From Caldilineae bacterium (lineage in GTDB: Bacteria > Chloroflexota > Anaerolineae > JAAEKA01): a DNA stretch of 64,000 bases. Location: NCBI GenBank assembly GCA_020634555.1, contig JACKBK010000006.1, forward strand, positions 64,373-128,372, read 5' to 3'. The notes beneath the pieces were generated by a model, which saw only the letters and a program-made list of their open reading frames with translations, had not been told where the DNA came from and ran no database searches. Position 1 is the stretch's first letter. Each line of letters begins with the position of its first letter. The position numbers and the translations under genes are program-made. Below are positions 38,030 to 53,293 of the stretch, piece by piece.

Positions 38030-39742
38030 ATGGAATCAGCACAATTGCTTCGTGTTGCCCGCGGGGAAGAACCAGCCGATCTGGTTCTGCGTGGCGGCGC
38101 AGTGATCAATGTTTTCTCCGGGGAGATCGAACAGACCGATATCGCATTAGCCGGCGGCAAGATCGCCGGTCTCGGCCCTGGGTATGCAGCCGTGCAGGAG
38201 GTGGATCTGGCTGGCGCGCTGGTGGCGCCTGGCTTCATCGACGCCCACGTCCACATCGAAAGCTCCATGTGTACCACGCCCCAGTTCGCCCGCGCCGTGT
38301 TGCCGCGCGGCACCACGACCGTCATCACCGATCCCCATGAGATCGCCAACGTCCACGGGCTGGAGGGCATTCGCTACATGCTGCACGCCGCTCGTCACAC
38401 ACCGTTGAGCGTCTGGGTCAACGTGCCCTCGTGCGTGCCGGCCACCGCGATGGAAACATCGGGTGCCGTGCTGCCGGCGGAAGATTTGCTGACGCTGCTG
38501 GACGATCCGGGCGTGCTGGGTCTGGCCGAGATGATGAACTACCCCGGCGTTGTTTTCGGCGATCCCGATGTGCTGGCCAAGATCGCCGGCTTCCGCGGGC
38601 ATCCATTGGACGGCCACGCACCGGCGTTGAGCGGCCAGCAACTTAACGCCTACATCGCGGCCGGCATCGGCTCGGACCACGAGTGCACCACGGTCGAGGA
38701 AGCAGCGGAAAAGCTGGCGCGCGGGCTGTACATCCTCATTCGCGAGGCCACCAACGCCCACAACCTGGAGACGCTGCTGCCGTTGGTCACGCCGCGCAAC
38801 AGCCGGCGCATCTGCTTCTGCACCGATGACCGCCAACCGGCCGACCTGCTGGACCAGGGCGGGATCGACTACATGGTGCAGACTGCGATCCGCCGCGGCG
38901 TCGATCCGGTGACCGCGATCCAGATGGCGACGCTGAACACCACCGAGTGGTTCGGCCTGCACGACCGCGGCGCGGTGGCGCCGGGCCGCCGCGCCGATCT
39001 GGTTGTCTTTGACAGCTTCGATGATTTGCAGGTGCGCCGGGTCTATATCGCAGGGCGGCTGGCAGCGCGCGACGGCGCGCTGCAGATGGCGACTCCGGCC
39101 GCGCCACCTTTCTCCTTGCCGCAGAGCATGAACATCGCCTGGGACCAGATCGACCTGGCTATCCCGGCCGCGGGCACGAAGGTCCGCGTCATCGGCGCGA
39201 TCGAGAATCAACTGGTCACCGAGCACCTGATTCTGGAACCGCGACTGGCGGAGGGCATGGCCGTGGCCGACGTGGCGCGGGACGTGCTGAAGATAGCCGT
39301 CATCGAGCGCCATCATGGTACCGGCAACGTCGGCAAGGGGTTCATCAAGAACATCGGTTTGAAGCGGGGCGCGCTGGCCTCGTCGGTAGCTCACGACCAC
39401 CACAACATCGTCGTAGTCGGCGCGGACGACACCAGCATGATGACCGCCGCGCGCGCCGTTGCTGCGATGGGCGGCGGGCTGGCGGCTGCGGAGGGGGAGC
39501 AGGTGCTGGGGCGCTTGCCGCTGCCGGTGGCCGGGCTGATGTGCGAGGAACCCATCGAGCAAGTCCGCGCTCAGTTCGACAACCTGCTTGACGCGGCGCA
39601 TGCGCTGGGATCGCCCCTGCACGACCCCTTCATGGCCATGAGCTTCAGCGCGCTGGAGGTCATCCCACACCTCAAGCTGACCGATGTCGGCCTGGTAGAC
39701 GTGGACCGCTTCGAGGTCGTGCCGCTGTTTGTCGCCCCGTAG
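38030..39742 (+). CDS. ade: Adenine deaminase
   Basis: ...ADLVLRGGAVINVFSGEIEQTDIALAGGKIAGLG...APGFIDAHVHIESSM...TTVITDPHEIANV...LDGHAP...GIGSDHECT... is the canonical adenine deaminase (amidohydrolase) signature. 570 aa, SD gaggag. Confidence 0.9.
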   Translation: MESAQLLRVARGEEPADLVLRGGAVINVFSGEIEQTDIALAGGKIAGLGPGYAAVQEVDLAGALVAPGFIDAHVHIESSMCTTPQFARAVLPRGTTTVITDPHEIANVHGLEGIRYMLHAARHTPLSVWVNVPSCVPATAMETSGAVLPAEDLLTLLDDPGVLGLAEMMNYPGVVFGDPDVLAKIAGFRGHPLDGHAPALSGQQLNAYIAAGIGSDHECTTVEEAAEKLARGLYILIREATNAHNLETLLPLVTPRNSRRICFCTDDRQPADLLDQGGIDYMVQTAIRRGVDPVTAIQMATLNTTEWFGLHDRGAVAPGRRADLVVFDSFDDLQVRRVYIAGRLAARDGALQMATPAAPPFSLPQSMNIAWDQIDLAIPAAGTKVRVIGAIENQLVTEHLILEPRLAEGMAVADVARDVLKIAVIERHHGTGNVGKGFIKNIGLKRGALASSVAHDHHNIVVVGADDTSMMTAARAVAAMGGGLAAAEGEQVLGRLPLPVAGLMCEEPIEQVRAQFDNLLDAAHALGSPLHDPFMAMSFSALEVIPHLKLTDVGLVDVDRFEVVPLFVAP

Positions 39743-39810
39743 AATAGCCCCTTGTGGGCGTTCGGGAGTCCTCGGAACGGGCACAAGGCCCTATCCTACA
39801 CGTACCCGCC
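39739..39810. repeat. 72-bp repeat, copy 1 (gtagaatagccccttgtgggcgttc...gaacgggcacaaggccctatcctacacgtacccgcc)
   Basis: Nearly identical to the copy at 39861-39932. It contains a 25-nt imperfect inverted repeat and starts within the ade stop codon. Confidence 0.85.
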
Positions 39811-39860
39811 GGACCGCCTTCGCAGTGTAGCACCTTGTCGATGCTCGCGTTCATCCTGTC

Positions 39861-39932
39861 GTAGGATAGCCCCTTGTGGGCGTTCGGGAATCGCCGGAAC
39901 GGGCACAAGGCCCTATCCTACACGTACCCGCC
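39861..39932. repeat. 72-bp repeat, copy 2
   Basis: A direct repeat of 39739-39810, 122 bp downstream, with a few substitutions concentrated in the loop (gggagtcctcgg vs gggaatcgccgg). Confidence 0.85.
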
Positions 39933-42348: not shown

Positions 42349-42440
42349 CTTAGTTTTCTCACTTTCGTTGGGGTTGAGTGGTTTTGCAGCGTACGCTGAA
42401 CGCCGGTTACATGCACCGGGGAAGCGAAATGTTTACTCGT

Positions 42441-43814
42441 CTACATTGACACCAATGGCAGATACGCCCGCCGGCGCACCTGGGGCTTCTCCATGCACGC
42501 CCACGTTGCCCCGCCGTCGTCGGAGCGGTACATGTAGTCGTCGTAGGTCCCCGCGACGTAGGCGTGCATGAACAACGAGTACGGTTTGGCGGGAACAGGT
42601 GTGCCCGGTGCATCGACGCGCGGCAGGAAGACCTGGTGTAGGGTGGCGTTGCTCGTTGCCGACCGCTCACTGTTCATCGGCTGGTTCAAGATCACGGGCG
42701 CAGCGGGGTTGGCAGTCATCGGATTCATCAGCGATGAACTGGCTCGTCTGGCCACTTCCAGGCTGAACACCGTCCCCGATACCGTCAATCGCCGCCAGCT
42801 TAGTCCATCGTCGTAGCTGGCGTACAGCCCATCTCTGGTGGCAAGATAGATCGTGGGGTCTTCGGGGTAGTCGGGCGCAAAGCGTGGAATGAGTCCTCCC
42901 ACTTGTGTCAGCGAATGGTCACATGCTGCAGTCGAGCCCCAAGGGAAGATCGCCCGCCACGTCAGTCCGCCATCCCTGCTCTGAAACAGCGAGTTGTCAT
43001 AGAAACTTATCAGGAGTGTGTGGTCACGGGCATAGCCGGGTGACACCTGGAGATGCGAATTCAGCATCGAGGTGTAGCACAGTCCCTGGCCAGCCGTCTG
43101 CCACGTTTCGCCGCCGTCATGGGAGAGGATGAAGTCGTTGCCCAAAGTCTGGCTGTTGCCCAACAGCGTCGCCCAGATAGTCTGGTCGTTGTCGTAGTCG
43201 GACGACACCGCCACACTCCAGGCGTTGGTTTCCTCCCAGATCATCTGCCAACTCTGGCCGCCGTCCTCTGAACGGGCGATACCAAAGGGTAGTGGACTCC
43301 AGTCGAAATACCACCAGCGCGGTTGAAACAGAACATTTGCTTGGCCAGCGGCGCGTAGACTAAACCAAGAACAGTCAAGATCAACTGCACTGCAAGCCGC
43401 AGTGCGTTCCTCCCAAACGTCGCCTGTTTGCTCGCTCCGAAATAGGTGGTACTGGCGATAGTAGAGGTCCTGCACCCCGAGATAGAGGGTGATCCCACCA
43501 TCGGCGTTGTGCGGCGTCATCTGAAACTGCTCAATGCTTGAAAGGAACAGGTCTGGCGCAAATGTGAAAATTAATTGCCACGTTTGGCCATTATCCTGAC
43601 TGCGCCACAGCAAGCTCTCAGACACGTTGATCCAAAACATCGTCTCATCCTGGTCGTATCGAGGCGACGGAAACACGTAGTCGCGAGTCAACTCTTGTTG
43701 GCATGCGGGTAAGATCGTCTGAGCACGCGTCCGTTGGCTGCCCCATGGCCCCAGGAGCGACAACAACAGAAACGCCGAAGCCACGGCTGTCGTGAAGAGG
43801 GTTGCTCGTCTCAT
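42441..43814 (-). CDS. Secreted BNR/Asp-box repeat beta-propeller protein (Ycf48/sialidase-like fold) with a C-terminal YLPLV tail
   Basis: ATG 43814 gives MRRATLFTTAVASAFLLLSLLGPW (signal peptide). Asp-box repeats are present: SQDNGQTWQ, SEDGGQSWQ, SHDGGETWQ, SRDGGLTWR, SYDDGLSWR, SDDGGATW. The track start 44021 is an extension. Confidence 0.75.
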   Translation of the reverse strand: MRRATLFTTAVASAFLLLSLLGPWGSQRTRAQTILPACQQELTRDYVFPSPRYDQDETMFWINVSESLLWRSQDNGQTWQLIFTFAPDLFLSSIEQFQMTPHNADGGITLYLGVQDLYYRQYHLFRSEQTGDVWEERTAACSAVDLDCSWFSLRAAGQANVLFQPRWWYFDWSPLPFGIARSEDGGQSWQMIWEETNAWSVAVSSDYDNDQTIWATLLGNSQTLGNDFILSHDGGETWQTAGQGLCYTSMLNSHLQVSPGYARDHTLLISFYDNSLFQSRDGGLTWRAIFPWGSTAACDHSLTQVGGLIPRFAPDYPEDPTIYLATRDGLYASYDDGLSWRRLTVSGTVFSLEVARRASSSLMNPMTANPAAPVILNQPMNSERSATSNATLHQVFLPRVDAPGTPVPAKPYSLFMHAYVAGTYDDYMYRSDDGGATWACMEKPQVRRRAYLPLVSM

Positions 43815-44405
43815 GATGCATGCCCCTATTGGTCCGGCGTGGCTGTCACGGGAACACCCCCTGCCCAAGTCGTTCCAGCCGGTATCGTGAGCGAGTATTC
43901 GCCAGACTGCATGACGTAAAACAGGAGCAGGATGGCTGCCCCCCGACGGTTGTTGCGATGGTCGTCCATGAGCTTCCTCCACATGATAGCCAGCAGTAAC
44001 GCCAGCCGATTTCATCATCAACGAACTGACCTGATGATAGCACCTGTTTGGCGGGGCGTCAACAGGGCATTTGGAGCATTGACGAACCGATCATGACTGT
44101 GTTCCGGGAACTTGATGTGTTGTTCATAGCGCTGGCGTCCGCGAAGCTGACCTGGATCATACCACGAAACAGCCGAGTCGTGGTACATTGCTGGTACGGG
44201 AAATAGACGCGGTGCGATTCTCGCCTTGAGCGGGAAGATGAAAGCATTGTCATGAAATTCACGCACTCGTGTAATCAAGGATTAATGTTCATCGCGTACA
44301 TTGAGACTGTAAGAAACTACCGAGTTGTAGGACATGATGGCATGGGAAGATCGCAGGACGGGAAGAGACGACCTACCGACTTACCACCTCTGGTGAGGGA
44401 AACTC

Positions 44406-46143
44406 ATGAAACACAATCACAACCGCAAACCCACAACCACGACATCGGCCGCCTGGCACATCTTTGCGATGCTTCTGCTGGCTGCCTTGCTGGTGGGACC
44501 GTCGCCGTCGCCGGTGCGCGCCGGTGAGAGCCAAACCGACAAATCTCCCCAGTTCGACTGCACCACGGTCACCGAGATACCGGTGGCCAGTGTGAAGCGC
44601 TGGTGGCGCTGTACGACAGCACCAACGGCGACAATTGGTACTGGAAGGACGGCTGGCTGCAAACCGACACGCCTTGCAGTTGGTTGGCATCACCTGTGAT
44701 GCAGGCCATGTCACCAAGCTTGAACTGGTCATAGTAACACTTTTGCGCGGTGCGCTTCCGCCCGAATTAGGGCAACCTGGCTGAACTAGCGAGGCTGGAC
44801 TTGCGAGCTGAGAATTACCTGACCGGTCCGCTTCCTGGCACGTTGACAAACCTCGAGCCATGTCTCGGTTTTCAGTCTGTTTCTCAACGAGCTTACCGGT
44901 CCGCTTCCTCCTGAACTGGGCAACATGACTTCGTTTAGTGGCTTGGATCCTGAATGACAATCAGATTGACGGTCCCATCCCCCTCCATTGGGGCGACCTG
45001 ACTGCAATCTGGGGATATTTCTCAGAACAAAACCAGTTGAGCGGCCCCATCCCGCCGGAACTGGGCGATCTTTCCAATCTGGAAAACCTGTCCGTTGGAG
45101 GAGAACCACCTCAGCGGCTCGATCCCTCCGAAACTCGGCCAACTCAGCAACCTGTGCGACCTCGAACCTGAGCGAGAACGAGTTGACCGGGACCATGCCG
45201 CCCGATCTGGGCAACCTGACCGGCCTCGGTTGGTGCCGCTCCTCGGTCCCACCAACGGCGACCTGGCCCGGTTGCGGGACAGAAGCAACACACCTGCGCG
45301 GCTGTATCCTGGCGCCGCTATAGTTCGCCGATGGCCGGCCGCCGCAACCTGAAACCGGCTACCTCAACCTCAACAGCAACCACCTCAGCGGCTCCATTCC
45401 GGTGGAGTTGAGCCAACTGACGGACGCCTCGGGCTTGAATCTGGGCTGCAACATGCTGTCGGCGACCCGTTCCCTACCCCGTGGCGCAGCGTAATCCGCT
45501 GGGGTAATCTTGCCTTCAACGCGTTGACTCGCTACGAACCGGTGCTCCGTCCCTTTGGTATTGGCGCCAGACCAGACCGTGGCCCCGGCGAACCTGGCGG
45601 CGACCGGCAGCAGCAACGGCGATCCTATCATCATCACCTGGACGCCTATTCTCATCTTGGGACGAGGGCTACTACGAGATCAGCTACGCTTCGGCGCCCG
45701 GCGGACCCTTCACCGTGTACGGCCAGACGGCCGACAAGATCGCCAGCAGCTACACCGTCCAGCTGCCGGCCCAGGAGACGCCCTATTACTTCCGGCTGCG
45801 CACCGTCACCTTGCCCCATACCTACATCAACTACGGTGTCGATTGTGACTATCAATCAAACACGGTGATCAGCGAGTACACGGAGGTAGTGGCGTCGGGC
45901 GGCTGGGATCCGCCGCCCACCGAGACGCCGACCCCCACCCCGACAGGAACATCGACGGCGACGCCGACGGCTACAGCGACGACCACTGCAACCGCCACTG
46001 CCACACCTACGCACACCGCCACGGCTACTGCGACACCGACCGCGACTGCGACCGAAACCGCCACGCCAACCGCGACACCCACTGCGACGGCCACCGCCAC
46101 AGCGACCCCGTCCCGACTGTGGCTGCCGCTGATCCTGCACTGA
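44406..46143 (+). pseudogene. Degraded gene for a secreted leucine-rich-repeat + FN3-like protein (many frameshifts)
   Basis: A signal peptide (MKHNHNRK...FAMLLLAALLVGP) is followed by recognisable pieces scattered over all three forward frames. These include QCEALVALYDSTNGDNWYWKDGWLQTDTPCSW / GITCDAGHVTKLEL / NQLSGPIPPELGDLSNLENL / NHLSGSIPPKLGQLSNL / NELTGTMPPDLGNLTGL / NHLSGSIPVELSQL. An FN3-like block and a (T/A/P)n linker ending RLWLPLILH* follow. Confidence 0.75.
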
Positions 46144-46440
46144 CGAGGGCATCTGCCCCTTGACATTGAAGACCGGGATTGGAGGTTTTCGCGTCTGATG
46201 ATCGCCGTCGCCGCGCGTCTCCTTTCGCCGGCTGCTTTCTGCTTGGACGCGTGATCAGCTCACTCCAATGGAGAGTCTGTTAGCGCCCGTCTCCTGCCAA
46301 ACGGTGGTGAAGGATTGTTCGCCGGACCAGGGCAGGATGTCGGCCTCCAGATCGACGAAAACCCTCATGACGGGCCACAAACACGGGATGCCCCGTCCCT
46401 ACGCGCCAACGCATTCTGAGCGCCCCCGAATGCTCAGACA

Positions 46441-47346
46441 CTAGGACGATTCCTCTCCCAGCGCCAGCAGCAGCGCATGGTCGCTCACTGACTGGTAGGC
46501 CGCCGCCAGCGGGTCGGTGATCTCGCCGGGCTTGCGCTCGAAGGGCGGTTTGCCCAGCCGCTTCAGCAGTCCCGCCTCGACAGCTGGACGGACGACCGGT
46601 GCGCTGAACCCGTCCAGCCCGTCGCCCATATCCCAGAACCGATCCAGGACAGCCTCCAGCGGTTCGATGCTCTCCGGCAAGGACTCCGGCGCTGGAGCGA
46701 CCTCATACGCCGGCGAATCCTCGGCCAGCGCCAGGTCAGCCACGCCGCGCCGCCGATGCAGCTCGGCCAGCAACTGATCCTTGTCCTTGCCGCGCAGGTG
46801 AAAGATCAGGAAGGGGTCCTGGTCAAAGCGCTCACCCAGCAAGAAGTAGACCGCGGCGACGTGCTTGCACGGGTTGGCGTAGTCGGGGCAGGAACAGTCC
46901 GTGTGCAGGTCGTCGCTGCGCGTGGGAAAGAGGCTGACGTGCGCGGCCCAGAACGCAGTTTCCACATCGGGCGGCATCTCGCCGGCCAGCAGCTTGGCAG
47001 CAAAGATCGCCTGCCCGGCCAGCGCTTCAATCACTTCGGACCACTCGGCGTCTGTCAGAGTCTTGACCGCGATCTTCACCTTGTAGGGCCGGGCGCGCGA
47101 TCCCTGGACGCGCGATGTGACCACGCCGGGGCCGATGTCCAGGTCCAGCACCTGGCCTTTGCGGGCGTAGCTGCGGCCGCGGCTCAACCGGCCCGAGTCC
47201 AGCAGCGGCTCCAGCGCGGCGATCCACTTGTCGGCCCACCAGCTCTCGCCGATCTTGCCGCGTTTGCTGCGGGCCTTGATGCCGTCGGCCGCGCGCGGCT
47301 TGCTGGGCTGGGGATACCAATCGTCGTAGTCGTAGCGTCGTGGCAT
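46441..47346 (-). CDS. SWIM zinc-finger protein
   Basis: A C-x-C-x(n)-C-x-H SWIM signature ...DCSCPDYANPCKHVAAVYFLL... in a 301-aa protein. It lies immediately downstream of, and co-oriented with, the SNF2 gene. Confidence 0.85.
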   Translation of the reverse strand: MPRRYDYDDWYPQPSKPRAADGIKARSKRGKIGESWWADKWIAALEPLLDSGRLSRGRSYARKGQVLDLDIGPGVVTSRVQGSRARPYKVKIAVKTLTDAEWSEVIEALAGQAIFAAKLLAGEMPPDVETAFWAAHVSLFPTRSDDLHTDCSCPDYANPCKHVAAVYFLLGERFDQDPFLIFHLRGKDKDQLLAELHRRRGVADLALAEDSPAYEVAPAPESLPESIEPLEAVLDRFWDMGDGLDGFSAPVVRPAVEAGLLKRLGKPPFERKPGEITDPLAAAYQSVSDHALLLALGEESS

Positions 47347-47393
47347 AGGTGTCTCTCAATGAAGTTTACAGAGGATCGCCGCGGAAACTTGTA

Positions 47394-47567
47394 GCTTAGC
47401 GCCGGTCGAGTAGCGGATTGAGGCAACCCAAATCTCATGAAACGGTGAGACATCAGCGTACCGAGACCAAGCGGATTGCGCGCGCGACTCGCTTGGTCTC
47501 GGTACGCTGACTGTACTCATCTTCATTCAAACAGTCTCCACAACCCGCTACTCGACCGGCGCTAAGC
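47394..47567. repeat. 174-bp nested double-hairpin element filling the SNF2-SWIM intergenic gap
   Basis: The outer stem is a perfect 23 bp (47394-47416 with 47545-47567). The inner stem is a perfect 21 bp (47453-47473 with 47490-47510) around a GC-alternating loop gattgcgcgcgcgact. The element starts 1 nt after the SNF2 stop codon. Confidence 0.85.
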
Positions 47568-47568
47568 C

Positions 47569-50500
47569 TTAACCTGCTGCGTCCTGGCGCAGCGTCAAAA
47601 GTTGGCGCAGGTCGTCGGTAGACAGCTCGGTCAGCCACCCCTCGCCAGCGCCGACCACGGCGTCGGCCAGCGCCTGCTTGCGCTCGATCAGGTCGTCGAT
47701 GGCCTCCTCCAGCGTGCCGGCGCACACCAGCTTATGAACGTGAACGTTGCGCGTCTGGCCGATGCGAAAGGCGCGGTCGGTGGCCTGGTTCTCCACAGCC
47801 GGGTTCCACCAACGGTCGAAGTGGAAGACGTGGTTGGCCGCGGTCAGGTTCAGACCGGTGCCGCCTGCTTTCAGCGACAGGATGAACAGCGCAGGGCTGC
47901 GGCGGCTCTGGAAGCGGGCAACCATCTCGTCGCGCTTCGACAGCGGCGTGCCGCCATGCAGGAAAAGCACCTCCTGGCCAAAAGCCTCCTGTAACTGGCG
48001 CTTGAGCAGCCCACCCATCTCGGCGAACTGGGTGAAAATCAGCGCCTGGTCGCCCTCGGCCAGCGCCTCCTCCAGCATTTCGTTGAGGCGCGCCAGCTTG
48101 CCGGAGCGGTGTTCCGGCCCGTCAGGACCGGAGAGCAGGGCCGGACTGCCGTCGGCCAGGAACTGCGCCGGGTGGTTGCAGACCTGTTTGAGCTTGAGCA
48201 GCGTGGCAAGCACCAGACCGCGCCGCCCGATGCCTTCACTCACCTCCAACTGCTGAAGCGAGTCCTTCACCACAGCCTGGTAGAGTGTGGCCTGCTCGGC
48301 GGTCAGCGTGCAGTAGGTGGTCATCTCCAGCTTGTCGGGCAGGTCCTGGATGATGGTGGGGTCGGTCTTGAGGCGGCGCAGAATGAACGGCTGCGTCAGC
48401 GAGCGCAACCGACGGGCCGCTTCCTCGTCGCCGGCCTTCTCGATAGGGCGGGCGAAATGCCGCTGGAAGTCGCGCTGCGATCCCAGATAGCCGGGGTTGA
48501 GGAAGTGCATGATCGACCACAGCTCGTTCAGGCGGTTCTCCACCGGGGTCCCGGTCAGGGCAATCCGGTGCTCGGCCGGCAGCTTGCGGATGGTCTGCGT
48601 CTGTTTGGCGCCTGGGTTCTTGATGTTCTGCGCCTCGTCCAGGATCACATCGCCCCAGTCGATGGTCAGCATCATGTCGGCATCGCGCCGGGCCAGCGCG
48701 TAGGTGCTGATGACCACATCGTGCCCGCGTGCGGCCTCCGCGAACTCTTCGCCGCGCCGCCGGTCGCCGCCGTGATGCACCATGACGCGCAGCGAGGGTG
48801 CAAAGCGTTGGATCTCGCGCTGCCAGTTGCCCACCACAGACGTCGGGCAGATAACCAGCGCCGGGCTGGCTCGGGTCCCCGCCGATGCGCCGGGCGAGCG
48901 CGTTGCCAGCAGATAGGCGATGGTCTCGGCGGTCTTGCCCAGCCCCATGTCGTCGGCCAGACAGGCGCCGAATCCCCAGCGGCGGAGAAAGGCGAGCCAG
49001 GAAAAGCCGCGCTGCTGGTAGGGGCGCAACTGGCCGCTGAATGCAGCCGGCTGTGGCAGCACCGCCATCTGGCCACCCGCCGTTTGCAGTTCTTCCACCA
49101 GGCGCGACAGCCATCCATCCGCGCTCACGCCGACCACATCGATGCCGGCGATCTGTTCCTGCGAGCCAAGCAGCACGCGCAGGGCCTCTTGCAGTGACAG
49201 CTCGCCCGCAGTTTTCTGCCGCGTTTCCCAGAACTTGATCGCCGTCTCCACCTGCTCCGGGTCGAGGACAGCCCACTGGCCGCGAATCCGTACCAACGGC
49301 TGCTTCAGGCTGGCAAGCCGTTCCAGCTCCTTGAGGGTCAGCGGTTCATCCCCCAACGCCAGGCTCCAGTCCACCGACACGATGCGCTCGAAACTCATGC
49401 CGCCAACCCCGCCCGATGGCGCTTTTTGCTGCGCTGGGCGCAGATTGAGCCGGGCGCCTAGCCGGTTGGAGGCACCGCGGCGGCCCCACCACTGTGGCGC
49501 CAGCACGCCAAAACCGCTCTCCTCCAGCAGCAAGGCCGTCTCGCGCAGGAAAGTGTATGCCTCCTCGGTGGTCAACGCGGCTGCCTCTGGCCGGGCCGCG
49601 TGCAGGCTCTCTTCGATGGGAGCGAAGAGACGCGACGCCTTGCCCAGCCCGGCCAGCATCTGTTCCTGTGGCTGGTCGAAGCGCCGATCCAGATAGCGCA
49701 GCTTCTGGCCGCGCGCCCGCCAGACCTGCTCCGCAGGCACCAGCAGGCTCAGATCGTCGGCGGCCTGCAAGAGGTAGCGCAGTTGCCAGGCGCGCTCATT
49801 CCGCTCAACCGGGGGTTCTTCAGGCGGTTCCAACCGAAAACAGAGGCGAAAGGCCTCGTCGCCGTCGGTCCGTAGCTGTGCCAGCCAGTCATTGACCTGT
49901 CCGGCAAGACGCGCGAGGTCGCCGGCCGAACCGTCCACCGCCGGATCGGCGCGCAGCAGCGCATTTCGCCAGCGCAACTCGGAACGCACAGGAACGCGAG
50001 CGGCAGTCGCGGCGGACTGCGCAGCCCAACCGCGCACACAGGCATCGGTGACGGTGTGCAGGAAGTTGGTCAGCAGACCGGCAGGCCCGGGTGGGTTGGC
50101 CGGGTCGTCAGGCAGACGCAGCGCACGGCAAACCGGCGGCATGGCGGCTGCCAGTTGCTCCAGCCGTGTCCGGTCGGCCGGGTCGTCCAGAGAGGGTTGC
50201 CACGCAGCACGATAGGTTGCCTGGGACTTCTGACTACCCGCGGCTGGAGCAACTGGTTCCGGCAAGGCCGGCACCAAGCGTTGCCGCGCCAGCAAGCTGA
50301 GCTGGAAGCGCGCCGCCATCCGCCAGAACTTCACGTCCGCGCCCAACGTGACCTGCGGTGGCAGCCGGTCACGCTCCGGCAGGCGAGCCAACCAGGGCAA
50401 CGCATCTTCAGGAGAGAGCAAGCAGCCGGCTACCTGCCAGGTGGCCAGACTGGTCTCGCCGTCTGGCGTATCCTCGGCGTCAACCAGCAGGTCGGGCGAT

Positions 50501-50799
50501 GACAGAGGTTGTATGCCGCGGCTGGGGAGATCTACATGAAGGAGCGCGGCTGATCGCGATGCACTGTCGCCGGGCAAGCTGCGCATCGCCGTCTCCAGTG
50601 TTCCGGCATCAGCGGCGAAAGGATGCGGGCTGACCCTGGGGCGTCTGCCGCGACGTTTTGCCGCCGGTGGGCCGGGCGAAGCCTCGCACCAGATCGCGAG
50701 CGCGCCGTCCGACGCTGGATTGGAAGATGAGGGAAGCCAGGCGCAGTGGAGAACAACCATGGGGGTGTGATTAACGATGTCTTGTGAGATGAGAGCCAA
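47569..50799 (-). CDS. SNF2/Rad54-family helicase-like ATPase with a long N-terminal SNF2-associated region
   Basis: ...[10 protein letters not shown]... (motif I), ...[11 protein letters not shown]... (DEAQ, motif II), ...[11 protein letters not shown]... and the helicase-C region ...[19 protein letters not shown]...[42 protein letters not shown]. The track start is TTG 50799. An alternative is ATG 50760 ([10 protein letters not shown]). Confidence 0.9.
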
Positions 50800-50918
50800 T
50801 GGCCGCCAGGGCCAGAGGTCTGTCCGCCCTCTGGCCGGTCATCACGGTCAATCATAGCCCGTCCGATGTATCCTGTCAATGTCGTGTGGTTGCGCTTCAA
50901 AGTCACTTTGTACAATGA

Positions 50919-50947
50919 TTGCATCCCATTTGAAAACTGGATATAAT
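50919..50947 (+). promoter_or_regulatory. Candidate promoter TTGCAT-17-TATAAT for the STAND ATPase gene
   Basis: Read directly in the AT-richer 228-bp divergent intergenic region. It is flanked by two copies of caaagtcac (about 50898 and 50951). Confidence 0.35.
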
Positions 50948-51027
50948 CAACAAAGTCACCCCGTCTTTGTGCTGGTACGTTGACGGTGTTCTGACATGTC
51001 AACCACGGTTTACCAAAGGTAATCGCC

Positions 51028-53118
51028 ATGTCTCCTCGCCTATCTGATCGAATTAGCGCCGCGCGCCGGCACCGTTTTATAGGTCGTGTGGCTGAGCAAG
51101 CCCTTTTTGAGTCTGCCATCAGCGCCGACGATCTTCCCTTCAATGTCTTGCACGTCTACGGCCCCGGTGGTGTCGGCAAAACGAGCCTGCTGCGCCAGTT
51201 TGCCGAGATCAGCCAAAGCCACGGCGCGGCCGCCTACAGCATCGACGCACGCAACACTGAGCCTGCACCAGACTCGTTTCTCGCCGCGCTGAGCATGGCG
51301 ATGGGATCGAATCCGGCCGAGTCGCCGGCCGACGTGCTGGCACAGCGCAAGGCGCGAGCGGTGATTCTTGTTGATACCTTCGAGAAGTTGTCGCCGCTGG
51401 AGGACTGGCTGCGCGACGGGTTCCTGCCGCGGTTGCCGGAGTCAGTCCTGGTCGTTCTGGCCGGCCGCAACCCGTTGAGCTCAACCTGGCGCGCCGATCC
51501 GGGATGGCAACCTTTTCTGCGCAGTGTGGCGTTGCGCAACCTCAGCCCCGAGGAAGGGCGCAGCTATTTGAAGCAGCGCAACCTGCCCGCCGACGAACTT
51601 CAGTCTGTTCTCGACTTCACCCACAGCTATCCCCTCGCGTTGTCGCTGGTGGCCGATATGTACGACCAGCGGCCCGATTTCCGCTTTATGCCGGCCGCTG
51701 CGCCCGATGTTATCAAGATGCTGTTGGAGCAGTTTCTGCAGCGCGTACCCGGCCCGGCGCACCGTGCGGCGCTGGAAGCCTGCGCGTTGGTGCGTGTGAT
51801 GACCGAGTCGTTGTTGGCCGAGATGCTCAACATGCCAGAGCCCAACGACCTGTTCGATTGGCTGCGAAGTCTGTCGTTTATCGAGACCCGACCGGGCGGC
51901 CTGTTTCCCCACGACCTGGCACGCGATGCACTGGTGGTCGATCTGCGCTGGCGCAACCCGGAGTGGTACGGCGAGATGCACCGGCGGGCGCGGGCGCACT
52001 ATACACAACGCCTGCAAAGCACCAATGGGCCGGAACAACAACTTGCCCTCTTCGATCTGGTTTTTCTGCACCGTGATAACCCAATGGTGCGCCCTTTCTT
52101 CGAATGGCAAACCAGCGGCAGAATGCTGCCCGACATGCTGCGCGATGCGGACGGTAGCGTCTTGCTGGACATGGTCTCCCGTCTCGAGGGACCGCAGTCG
52201 GCGCACCTGGCCGCCCAGCTGTTTGAGCAACAGCCGGAGAACGTGATAGTCTTCCGCGACGGCGAAGGTCAGGCCACCGGCTTCCTGACCCTGATCAACT
52301 TGAACCGGCTGAATGCCGCTGATCGGGAGCAGGACCAGGCGTTTGTCAGCGCCTGGCGCTATCTTCGACAGCGGCGCGCGCCGCTACGCGCTGGCGAGTC
52401 GGCCACCTATTTCCGCTTCTGGATGGCCGACGACACCTATCAGGGTGTGTCGCCAACGCAGAGTCTGATCTTCATCAACATGGTGCGTCACTATCTGACC
52501 ACGCCAGGCCTGGCCTTCACCTTCATTCCCTGCGCCGATCCTGATTTTTGGACCGAGGTGTTCGCCTATGCCGATCTGGCGCGGCTGCCCGATGCTGATT
52601 TCGAGATCGACGGACGCCGCTTTGGCGTCTACGGACACGATTGGCGCGCCACGCCGCCGGCCGCCTGGCTGGAGCTGTTGGCTGAGCGCGAGACTGCCCT
52701 GGCGCCGGAGACGATCCAGCCGCCACCGCCGGAGGAGCGGCTTGTCGTCCTCAGCGCAGAAGAGTTTGGCGACGCGGTGATCAACGGGCTGCGCGAGATG
52801 TCCAGGCCCGGCGGCCTGCGGGACAATCCACTGCTGCGCTCACGATTGGTAGTGCAACGCGCCGGATCCGATTCTGGTGAAAGCCAACGCAACACCGCGC
52901 TGGATGAGTTGCTGCGCGAGGCGGTTGCCAGCCTGCAGATGTCACCCAAAGATCTGAAGTATTACCGCGCTGTGTATCACACCTACGTACAGCCGGCTGC
53001 TACACAAGAGTTGGCTGCCGAGCTGCTGGATCTGCCTTTTAGCACCTATCGCCGGCACCTGAAGACAGGCATCACTCTGGTGACAGAGATGCTGTGGCAG
53101 GCAGAACTCGATACGTAG
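51028..53118 (+). CDS. STAND/NB-ARC-like P-loop ATPase with a C-terminal sigma70-r4/LuxR-type HTH (signal-transducing transcriptional regulator)
   Basis: ...FIGRVAEQALFE...NVLHVYGPGGVGKTSLLRQF (Walker A), ...AVILVDTFEKL (Walker B), ...THSYPLALSLVA (GxPLAL-like NB-ARC motif), an uncharacterised ~350-aa middle region, and a C-terminal ...QELAAELLDLPFSTYRRHLKTGITLV (HTH). Confidence 0.65.
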   Translation: MSPRLSDRISAARRHRFIGRVAEQALFESAISADDLPFNVLHVYGPGGVGKTSLLRQFAEISQSHGAAAYSIDARNTEPAPDSFLAALSMAMGSNPAESPADVLAQRKARAVILVDTFEKLSPLEDWLRDGFLPRLPESVLVVLAGRNPLSSTWRADPGWQPFLRSVALRNLSPEEGRSYLKQRNLPADELQSVLDFTHSYPLALSLVADMYDQRPDFRFMPAAAPDVIKMLLEQFLQRVPGPAHRAALEACALVRVMTESLLAEMLNMPEPNDLFDWLRSLSFIETRPGGLFPHDLARDALVVDLRWRNPEWYGEMHRRARAHYTQRLQSTNGPEQQLALFDLVFLHRDNPMVRPFFEWQTSGRMLPDMLRDADGSVLLDMVSRLEGPQSAHLAAQLFEQQPENVIVFRDGEGQATGFLTLINLNRLNAADREQDQAFVSAWRYLRQRRAPLRAGESATYFRFWMADDTYQGVSPTQSLIFINMVRHYLTTPGLAFTFIPCADPDFWTEVFAYADLARLPDADFEIDGRRFGVYGHDWRATPPAAWLELLAERETALAPETIQPPPPEERLVVLSAEEFGDAVINGLREMSRPGGLRDNPLLRSRLVVQRAGSDSGESQRNTALDELLREAVASLQMSPKDLKYYRAVYHTYVQPAATQELAAELLDLPFSTYRRHLKTGITLVTEMLWQAELDT

Positions 53119-53139
53119 GAAAATCGTAACTGTTCACCC

Positions 53140-53206
53140 GTCATTGCCGTGAAGGCGGGAGTCTAGTGACTGTGAAGACGTGGATTCCCGCCTCCGCGGG
53201 AATGAC
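53140..53206. repeat. Short (67-bp) member of the CCCGC-GAAG-GCGGG MITE-like family
   Basis: gtcattgccgtgaaggcgggagtctag...tggattcccgcctccgcgggaatgac. The ends are related to the 26994 and 57093 elements. Confidence 0.8.
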
Positions 53207-53293
53207 GCAACAGTGAAGGGTTCATAATAACGGAAAATTGATCAACAATTGAGCACCTTTTGGTCTGGAGATCAGCCAGCCAACGGAGATAGA

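Follow-up and report, generated by a model that had tools for sequence, protein, structure and literature searches.

Within a 64,000-nt stretch of DNA from a Caldilineae bacterium (GenBank assembly GCA_020634555.1, contig JACKBK010000006.1, positions 64,373 to 128,372 of the forward strand; the whole stretch is called the window here, and positions are counted from its first letter), a gene for an SNF2-family ATPase is followed by a gene for a SWIM zinc-finger protein, and a 174-nt nested palindrome lies in the gap between them. We conclude, with a probability of about 0.85, that the two genes are a typical example of a very widespread, uncharacterised operon and that the hairpin, a recent insertion, belongs to a small family of palindromic repeats specific to this lineage and is not a built-in regulator of the two genes. 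Specifically, we read the hairpin as a dispersed insertion resembling either the repetitive extragenic palindromic (REP) sequences and bacterial interspersed mosaic elements (BIMEs) or a miniature inverted-repeat transposable element (MITE), because it is absent from orthologous junctions, occurs in several copies, is restricted to one bacterial family, lies between genes without consistent orientation, carries compensatory changes in its arms and is built of modules. The source is a metagenome-assembled genome (MAG) of 3.79 Mb in 92 contigs, 75% complete and with 61.8% G+C. The features on which the argument turns are the following.

46441–47346, minus strand: SWIM zinc-finger gene, 301 aa (PF04434 at residues 141–168, E 7e-7)
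47347–47357, minus strand: ribosome-binding stretch GAGAGACACCT, retained, ahead of the SWIM ATG (read from the sequence)
47358–47572, no strand: inserted block, 215 nt against 9 nt in the junction of a congener (net gain about 206 nt)
47394–47567, no strand: nested palindrome, 174 nt, a copy of a dispersed repeat family (inverted-repeat search)
47569–50799, minus strand: SNF2-family ATPase gene of the SsoRad54/SSO1653 kind (1076-codon open reading frame from a TTG at 50799)
50851–50879, minus strand: putative sigma-70-like promoter upstream of SNF2, TTGACA-17-TATGAT, 11 of 12 matches (consensus scan only)

A filled and an empty junction

An earlier note on this DNA had described a 1076-codon SNF2 gene and a 301-aa SWIM gene in the same orientation, separated by a 222-bp gap with a 174-nt nested double hairpin that has perfect stems of 23 and 21 bp and begins 1 nt after the stop codon, and all of these points were confirmed, with both genes on the minus strand. 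The gap spans 47347–47568. The outer arms of the palindrome (47394–47423 and 47538–47567) are 30 nt long and 93% complementary, with the first 23 nt perfect, and the inner arms (47453–47481 and 47482–47510) are 29 nt long and 90% complementary, with the first 21 nt perfect and GCGCGCGC at the centre. Between outer and inner arms lie spacers of partial symmetry, with a TCATGA motif on one side in the window copy. In some other copies this motif is found on both sides, so that in essence the unit is a single long palindrome, two segments of which are strongly conserved. The palindrome ends at 47567 and the TAA stop codon of SNF2 (47569–47571) begins at 47569, leaving a single nucleotide between them.

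Comparison with a second genome of the genus (G001) reveals what this junction looks like without the palindrome. The SWIM and SNF2 proteins of this congener are 90% and 88% identical to those of the window, and the nucleotide sequences on both sides align at 86–91% identity right up to the junction, where the congener reads ...GCAGGC TGA GAGAAGAGAGGCATCT ATG, a gap of 16 nt from which the palindrome is absent. The inserted block in the window comprises the palindrome and an extra 36 nt (47358–47393). The C-terminus of SNF2 (...DAAG) is the same in both genomes, with a TAA in the window in place of the TGA of the congener. A TGA at 47356–47358, set within cat-TGA-gagacacct-ATG, looks like a remnant of the ancestral SNF2 stop codon, and the GAGAG ribosome-binding stretch beside it has been kept. 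In other relatives the gap measures 62, 10, 89, 42, 76 or 3 nt, the palindrome being present in none of them. Likewise, the palindrome is found in none of 81 homologous pairs, whose median gap is 16 nt and many of which overlap by 4 nt.

These observations suggest a simple course of events. A copy of the repeat would have inserted exactly at the SNF2 stop codon after the split from the sequenced congener, supplying the new TAA and leaving intact both the DAAG terminus and the SWIM ribosome-binding site. A 16-nt junction that was probably translationally coupled would thereby have been stretched to 222 nt, presumably with loss of the coupling. The earlier note had suggested that the element could be an inserted MITE, and this is correct in essence: the repeat is palindromic, dispersed and specific to one lineage, it is missing from orthologous junctions, and it has terminal inverted repeats, no open reading frame, several dispersed copies, and filled and empty orthologous sites, all of which are features of MITEs.

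A small and modular family of repeats

The family to which the palindrome belongs, with the arm sequence AGCGYCGRTCGAGTAGCGG, has six copies in the source genome, five complete and one with an internal insertion, as detected with BLAST and with a hidden Markov model built from the copies. With a covariance model, the three congeners yield 3, 7 and 5 copies and two more genera of the family yield weaker relatives, whereas three further genera of that Caldilineales family and 23 other families of the class yield none. Every copy in the source genome and the congeners is intergenic and, taking these genomes together, copies are found in both orientations, whether the genes on either side are tandem, convergent or divergent. 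Among 19 copies from four genomes, in an alignment fitted to the model, which favours pairing, 92% of the cells of model pairs hold standard pairs, and 17 of 49 pairs have changed on both sides; one pair of the outer stem, for example, is T-A in nine copies and C-G in eight.

The double hairpin is also part of larger arrangements. A third, outer palindrome, GGGTGTRTTTGAAACTGGTTGAT, encloses three of the source-genome copies and several of those in the congeners, and it also occurs alone as a unit of about 100 nt. The 36 extra nucleotides at 47358–47393 were considered as a remnant of this outer palindrome, and the idea was rejected since local alignments were no better than those with shuffled sequences (p 0.19–0.73). 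Taken as a second palindromic family in its own right, the outer palindrome has arms GGGTGTRTTTGAAACTGGTTGAK and about 20 arm matches in the genome; where it surrounds the double hairpin, three palindromic layers are nested. The sequence modules of the hairpin recur in a sister genus as tandem arrays, with periods of 128 and 175 nt and at least 3–7 units, and the modules that these arrays share with the hairpin are GGTCGAGTAGC..., GCGTATCGAGACC...GGTTTCGATACGC and ...CCGCTACTCAACC. Altogether the Caldilineales modules amount to three reusable palindromes that occur alone, nested or in 128-nt arrays, with palindromy kept by compensatory change. The locations of these arrangements are as follows.

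G000 C9:40444–40545, C23:111800–111901 and C23:169637–169759: second palindromic family, standing alone
C87:728–951, C22:34430–34653 and C37:22786–22984: second palindromic family, flanking hairpin copies
L141 (G010:C293:8600–10500), about 490–1500: sister-genus array
L142 (G010:C223), 447–845: sister-genus array

Beyond assembled genomes of the group, a scan of metagenomes for the exact 19-nt arm AGCGTCGGTCGAGTAGCGG returned 33 contigs, six of which hold elements (five full-length and one partial). The other 27 matches lie in unrelated sequence, mostly conserved coding genes (at least two such genes, of high-G+C soil bacteria), and exact-word scans for this repeat therefore yield mostly false positives. 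No autonomous parent was recognised, either as arm pairs lying far apart in the genome or among the 33 metagenome contigs. For the copy on G000:C22, a search for empty sites in congeners matched the repeat itself and never its flanks.

It is informative to set the family against palindromic repeats that are already known. Like the REP, BIME and REPIN repeats of proteobacteria, the units are short, non-coding, palindromic, intergenic and found just past a stop codon, where those repeats often lie, and they share with them a mosaic and modular make-up, tandem arrays (here in the sister genus) and arms that co-vary. They differ in being far longer (162–230 nt) and nested in two to three layers, in having only 3–7 copies per genome and no RAYT partner that we found, and in residing in Chloroflexota. 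Like the MITEs that insert into operons (Correia of Neisseria, ERIC/IRU of enterobacteria, RUP/BOX of pneumococci), the element is non-coding, has terminal inverted repeats, differs in presence between close relatives and would form a long double-stranded RNA hairpin if co-transcribed; unlike them, it has no target-site duplication that we recognised and no parent transposon that we found, and the whole unit is palindromic rather than its ends alone. By analogy, the mosaic behaviour of the family appears to resemble that of REP/BIME more closely than that of a classical transposase-dependent MITE.

A candidate RAYT partner was examined and rejected: the sole Y1/RAYT-like gene in the genome, which is 75% complete (PF01797, G000:C10:20738–21076), is flanked by an unrelated repeat of 123 nt. 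Within G000:C10:20442–21076, two structured repeats of 123 nt stand in tandem ahead of the Y1 (IS200/RAYT-like) gene. They are 93% identical to each other, more copies lie on C13 and C80, and the 123-nt repeat is a separate family, possibly forming a REPIN–RAYT pair with the Y1 gene.

Several observations weigh against our interpretation and should be stated together. The other copies in the source genome are 72–78% identical to the window copy, a divergence that shows no sign of a recent burst. There is no clear direct repeat at the ends of the filled site, with only TTAA/TTGA as a possible target-site duplication. No cognate transposase for the family was found in the 75%-complete genome. 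All six source-genome copies run antisense to the genes beside them, a possible hint of selection acting on RNA. Finally, what we say below about the function of the pair is drawn wholly from homology.

An ordinary copy of a widespread gene pair

The SNF2 gene has the features of an intact motor. Pfam profiles place DUF3670 at residues 403–542, SNF2-rel_dom at 594–878 (E 8e-73) and Helicase_C at 901–1014 (E 8e-21), and motor motifs I–VI, as read from the translation, are all present and undamaged. Because homologues align only from residue 14 onward, which is the ATG at 50760, the true start is probably that codon, with a product of 1063 aa, and the first 13 codons from the TTG at 50799 are probably not translated. 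The earlier note had described a ~480-aa N-terminal extension of this protein. The region is there, yet it is not an extra part: residues 14–622 match the sll1366-type N-domain of NCBIfam and belong to the N-terminal region conserved in the family. None of the papers searched mentions DUF3670, and a paper on “snf2” of Variovorax was set aside as concerning unrelated small proteins.

The best solved relative is SsoRad54 of Sulfolobus (PDB 1z63, E 6e-150 over residues 581–1070), whose ATPase activity depends on duplex DNA and which remodels DNA and promotes strand exchange by RadA (PMC2677860); within this class, ATP-dependent translocation along duplex DNA is known for SsoRad54 only. With motor motifs I–VI closest to those of SSO1653 and an adjacent, co-oriented SWIM gene, the protein has the characters of the class named “SWIM-associated SWI2/SNF2 ATPase”, which has been placed among mobile or conflict systems (PMC5512222) and of which a Bacillus subtilis member, YwqA, has been called poorly characterised (PMC7385302). 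Other proteins of this kind (SSO1653/SsoRad54, YwqA–YwqB, Mycobacterium tuberculosis HelZ and Synechocystis sll1366) have the same motor motifs, an N-terminal region with DUF3670 and an adjacent SWIM protein; the window pair differs in that it alone, among the 81 examined, is split by this palindromic repeat. Against NCBIfam, the protein scores 776.5 bits with the SCO1167/SCO6262 helicase model (cut-off 1200) and 437.8 bits with the sll1366 N-domain model (cut-off 550), and by these scores it is a relative, not an equivalog; the RapA/HepA equivalog is missed as well (39.5 against 576 bits).

In the SWIM partner, the CxCx6CxH motif (C151, C153, C160, H162) is invariant across 49 homologues. An AlphaFold2 model of the protein is good (pLDDT 82.8), and its best match in the PDB by Foldseek is a weak one to ZSWIM8 (E 0.14); a profile search against PDB sequences gave no match. 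Both genes are under purifying selection relative to the congener, with ratios of nonsynonymous to synonymous substitution, averaged over the whole divergence, of 0.165 for SNF2 and 0.19 for SWIM.

The pair is shared across distant lineages, and among the relatives of the source genome its occurrence is patchy. Its hosts include Chloroflexota, Acidobacteriota, Planctomycetota and other bacterial phyla, together with Methanophagales, Methanoperedens, Methanothrix and Thermoplasmata, and SNF2 comes immediately before SWIM, with both genes on one strand, in about 76 of 80 loci. The earlier note had proposed that its view would fail if the pair were a core-genome feature of all relatives and the hairpin one of many identical MITE copies. 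The second half is borne out insofar as the element is multi-copy, with copies that are diverged and not identical, and the first half is not, as the pair occurs in 8 of 41 relatives and in two of the four genomes of the genus. There is no third gene conserved beside the pair, the largest flanking cluster being a generic ABC ATPase at 12 of 81 loci and at varying positions.

Some loci depart from the common arrangement. On an uncultured Anaerolineales contig (L062, 566–4648), SNF2 and SWIM are joined in one in-frame fusion of 1360 aa, and on a Methanophagales contig (L040, 595–4625) the order is reversed, with SWIM before SNF2. At three further loci (L058, 3736–7937; L059, 2015–6571; L083, 3512–7975) SNF2 carries in-frame insertions of about 1.3–1.4 kb near motif I, with open reading frames of 1487–1518 aa where read. 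These would fit inteins, and the NCBIfam name “intein-prone helicase” agrees with this.

We suggest that the window pair is an intact copy of an ancient and horizontally spread operon for a SWIM-associated SWI2/SNF2 ATPase. By homology with SsoRad54, the motor would be an ATP-driven translocase on double-stranded DNA, and the SWIM protein may be its stoichiometric partner, a suggestion that draws on the tight coupling of the genes and the in-frame fusion. As a guess, the two would remodel or remove protein–DNA complexes in recombination or in conflicts between transcription and replication, and would not act in immunity. The earlier note had held that the association has no established function, and what we have found supports this.

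Alternative explanations

It is worth considering whether the hairpin is instead a functional intercistronic RNA element, selected or co-opted, that sets the SNF2:SWIM ratio by processing, stabilising or attenuating the transcript, as the earlier note had also proposed. The predicted RNA fold of the gap is very stable (−130.1 kcal/mol against −75.9 ± 4.9 for shuffled sequences, z = −11.1, none of 200 shuffles being as stable), it sits 1 nt past a stop codon, and the genes on both sides are undamaged and evolve under purifying selection. Repeats of the REP, ERIC and Correia types are known to alter the stability of segments of operon mRNA. Furthermore, a consensus scan found no promoter-like or terminator-like site within the gap, the sigma-70-like site upstream of SNF2 being the sole promoter-like site in 46300–51200. 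Because there is no internal promoter, SWIM would rely on read-through from this single promoter across the hairpin, and the transcript would contain a long perfect duplex, a substrate of the type cleaved by RNase III and one that can also shield mRNA lying upstream. The shared orientation of the six source-genome copies relative to their flanking genes also points this way. Nonetheless, we regard a dedicated regulator at this junction as unlikely. The element is present at none of the 81 homologous junctions, the congener with 90% protein identity included, and their median gap is 16 nt. The orientation bias, tried as evidence of RNA function, disappears when 14 copies from three congeners are added, with sense, antisense, convergent and divergent placements alike, and it was rejected as such evidence. 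There is no U-tract as in a terminator, and the sole match of the element in Rfam is a chance one to a microRNA (27.7 bits against a cut-off of 100). Likewise, the purifying selection on the genes spans the whole divergence and gives no sign that the insertion was beneficial. The simplest reading of the hairpin is a tolerated insertion; a changed SNF2:SWIM ratio, whether through cutting by RNase III or protection of the 3′ end, would then be a by-product of the insertion rather than the reason for it.

A bolder proposal is that the palindrome belongs to an undescribed modular repeat system of the Caldilineales, which would spread or persist by a mechanism new to Chloroflexota, and has here been captured as a double-stranded RNA site that uncouples the expression of SWIM from that of SNF2. 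The reusable palindromes and arrays described above lend themselves to such a proposal, which we nevertheless think improbable.

The idea that SNF2 and SWIM form a two-gene system of defence against phages or plasmids within a defence island is, to our minds, similarly doubtful. The pair is patchy, 8 of 41 relatives and two of the four congeners having it, and its close homologues are spread over bacteria and archaea alike, implying horizontal transfer. A STAND-like ATPase gene adjoins it divergently, the core of SNF2 resembles the PADLOC models of ZorD and DpdE, SWIM-associated SNF2 ATPases have been put among mobile or conflict systems (PMC5512222), and a few neighbours elsewhere are defence-like (AbiEii, PsyrTA, a DpdF-like helicase and ShosA). 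However, the PADLOC and NCBIfam matches reflect a generic motor and lie far under the equivalog cut-offs. The matches to ZorD and DpdE cover the motor half only (E down to 1e-129); ZorD reaches 285 of 1500 bits, with no PADLOC match to ZorA, ZorB or ZorC among the neighbours, and DpdE (41 of 500 bits) and DrmD (86 of 950) miss their cut-offs as well, their partner genes not being conserved. The SNF2 motor fold is shared with ZorD (Zorya), DpdE (Dpd) and DrmD (DISARM), whereas the N-terminal region differs and the genes that accompany those three proteins are lacking here. Nor does the pair have a conserved effector next to it, such as a nuclease or methylase. Among 130 immediate neighbours from about 70 loci, which are mostly metabolic or housekeeping genes, no Pfam family is seen at more than three loci, and PADLOC families reach two at most. 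In the window itself the neighbours have no PADLOC match other than a generic ABC ATPase, and an AbiEi-like gene is about 14 kb away, past a purine-salvage operon. The “defence-island flavour” that had been ascribed to this neighbourhood is therefore weak, and a META-domain lipoprotein gene that lies downstream in the congener too makes the context partly ordinary and syntenic.

That the palindrome is an assembly artefact is very improbable: the MAG is incomplete (75%, 92 contigs) and mis-assembly can yield long palindromes, but the element lies deep in a 129-kb contig between uniquely matching flanks, and three other assemblies from the genus, as well as unrelated metagenome contigs, contain homologous elements with independent substitutions.

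Other features of the window

The genome holds several distinct palindromic families, and the window has further repeats unrelated to the junction palindrome: two 72-nt hairpin units after an adenine deaminase gene (39739–39932) and a palindrome after the STAND gene (53119–53215). Beyond the SWIM gene, a 4.1-kb block at 42349–46440, with a BNR/sortilin-like gene (42441–44021) and a stretch of decayed gene and short open reading frames only, is absent from the congener. In that genome, 47 nt separate SWIM from the META-domain lipoprotein gene next to it, and the same gene is found downstream in the window, beyond the block.

Significance

For the most part this finding matters little beyond annotation. 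The hairpin is not part of SNF2–SWIM biology, and it provides no argument for a regulatory or defence role of the pair. The repeat family appears to be undescribed and modestly extends the range of bacterial palindromic repeats with a case from a phylum that has been little studied. The filled and empty junctions of two closely related genomes provide natural test material for the effects of a repeat on a coupled operon, and the pair itself adds another well-documented case to the long-standing question of what role this common SNF2–SWIM module plays.

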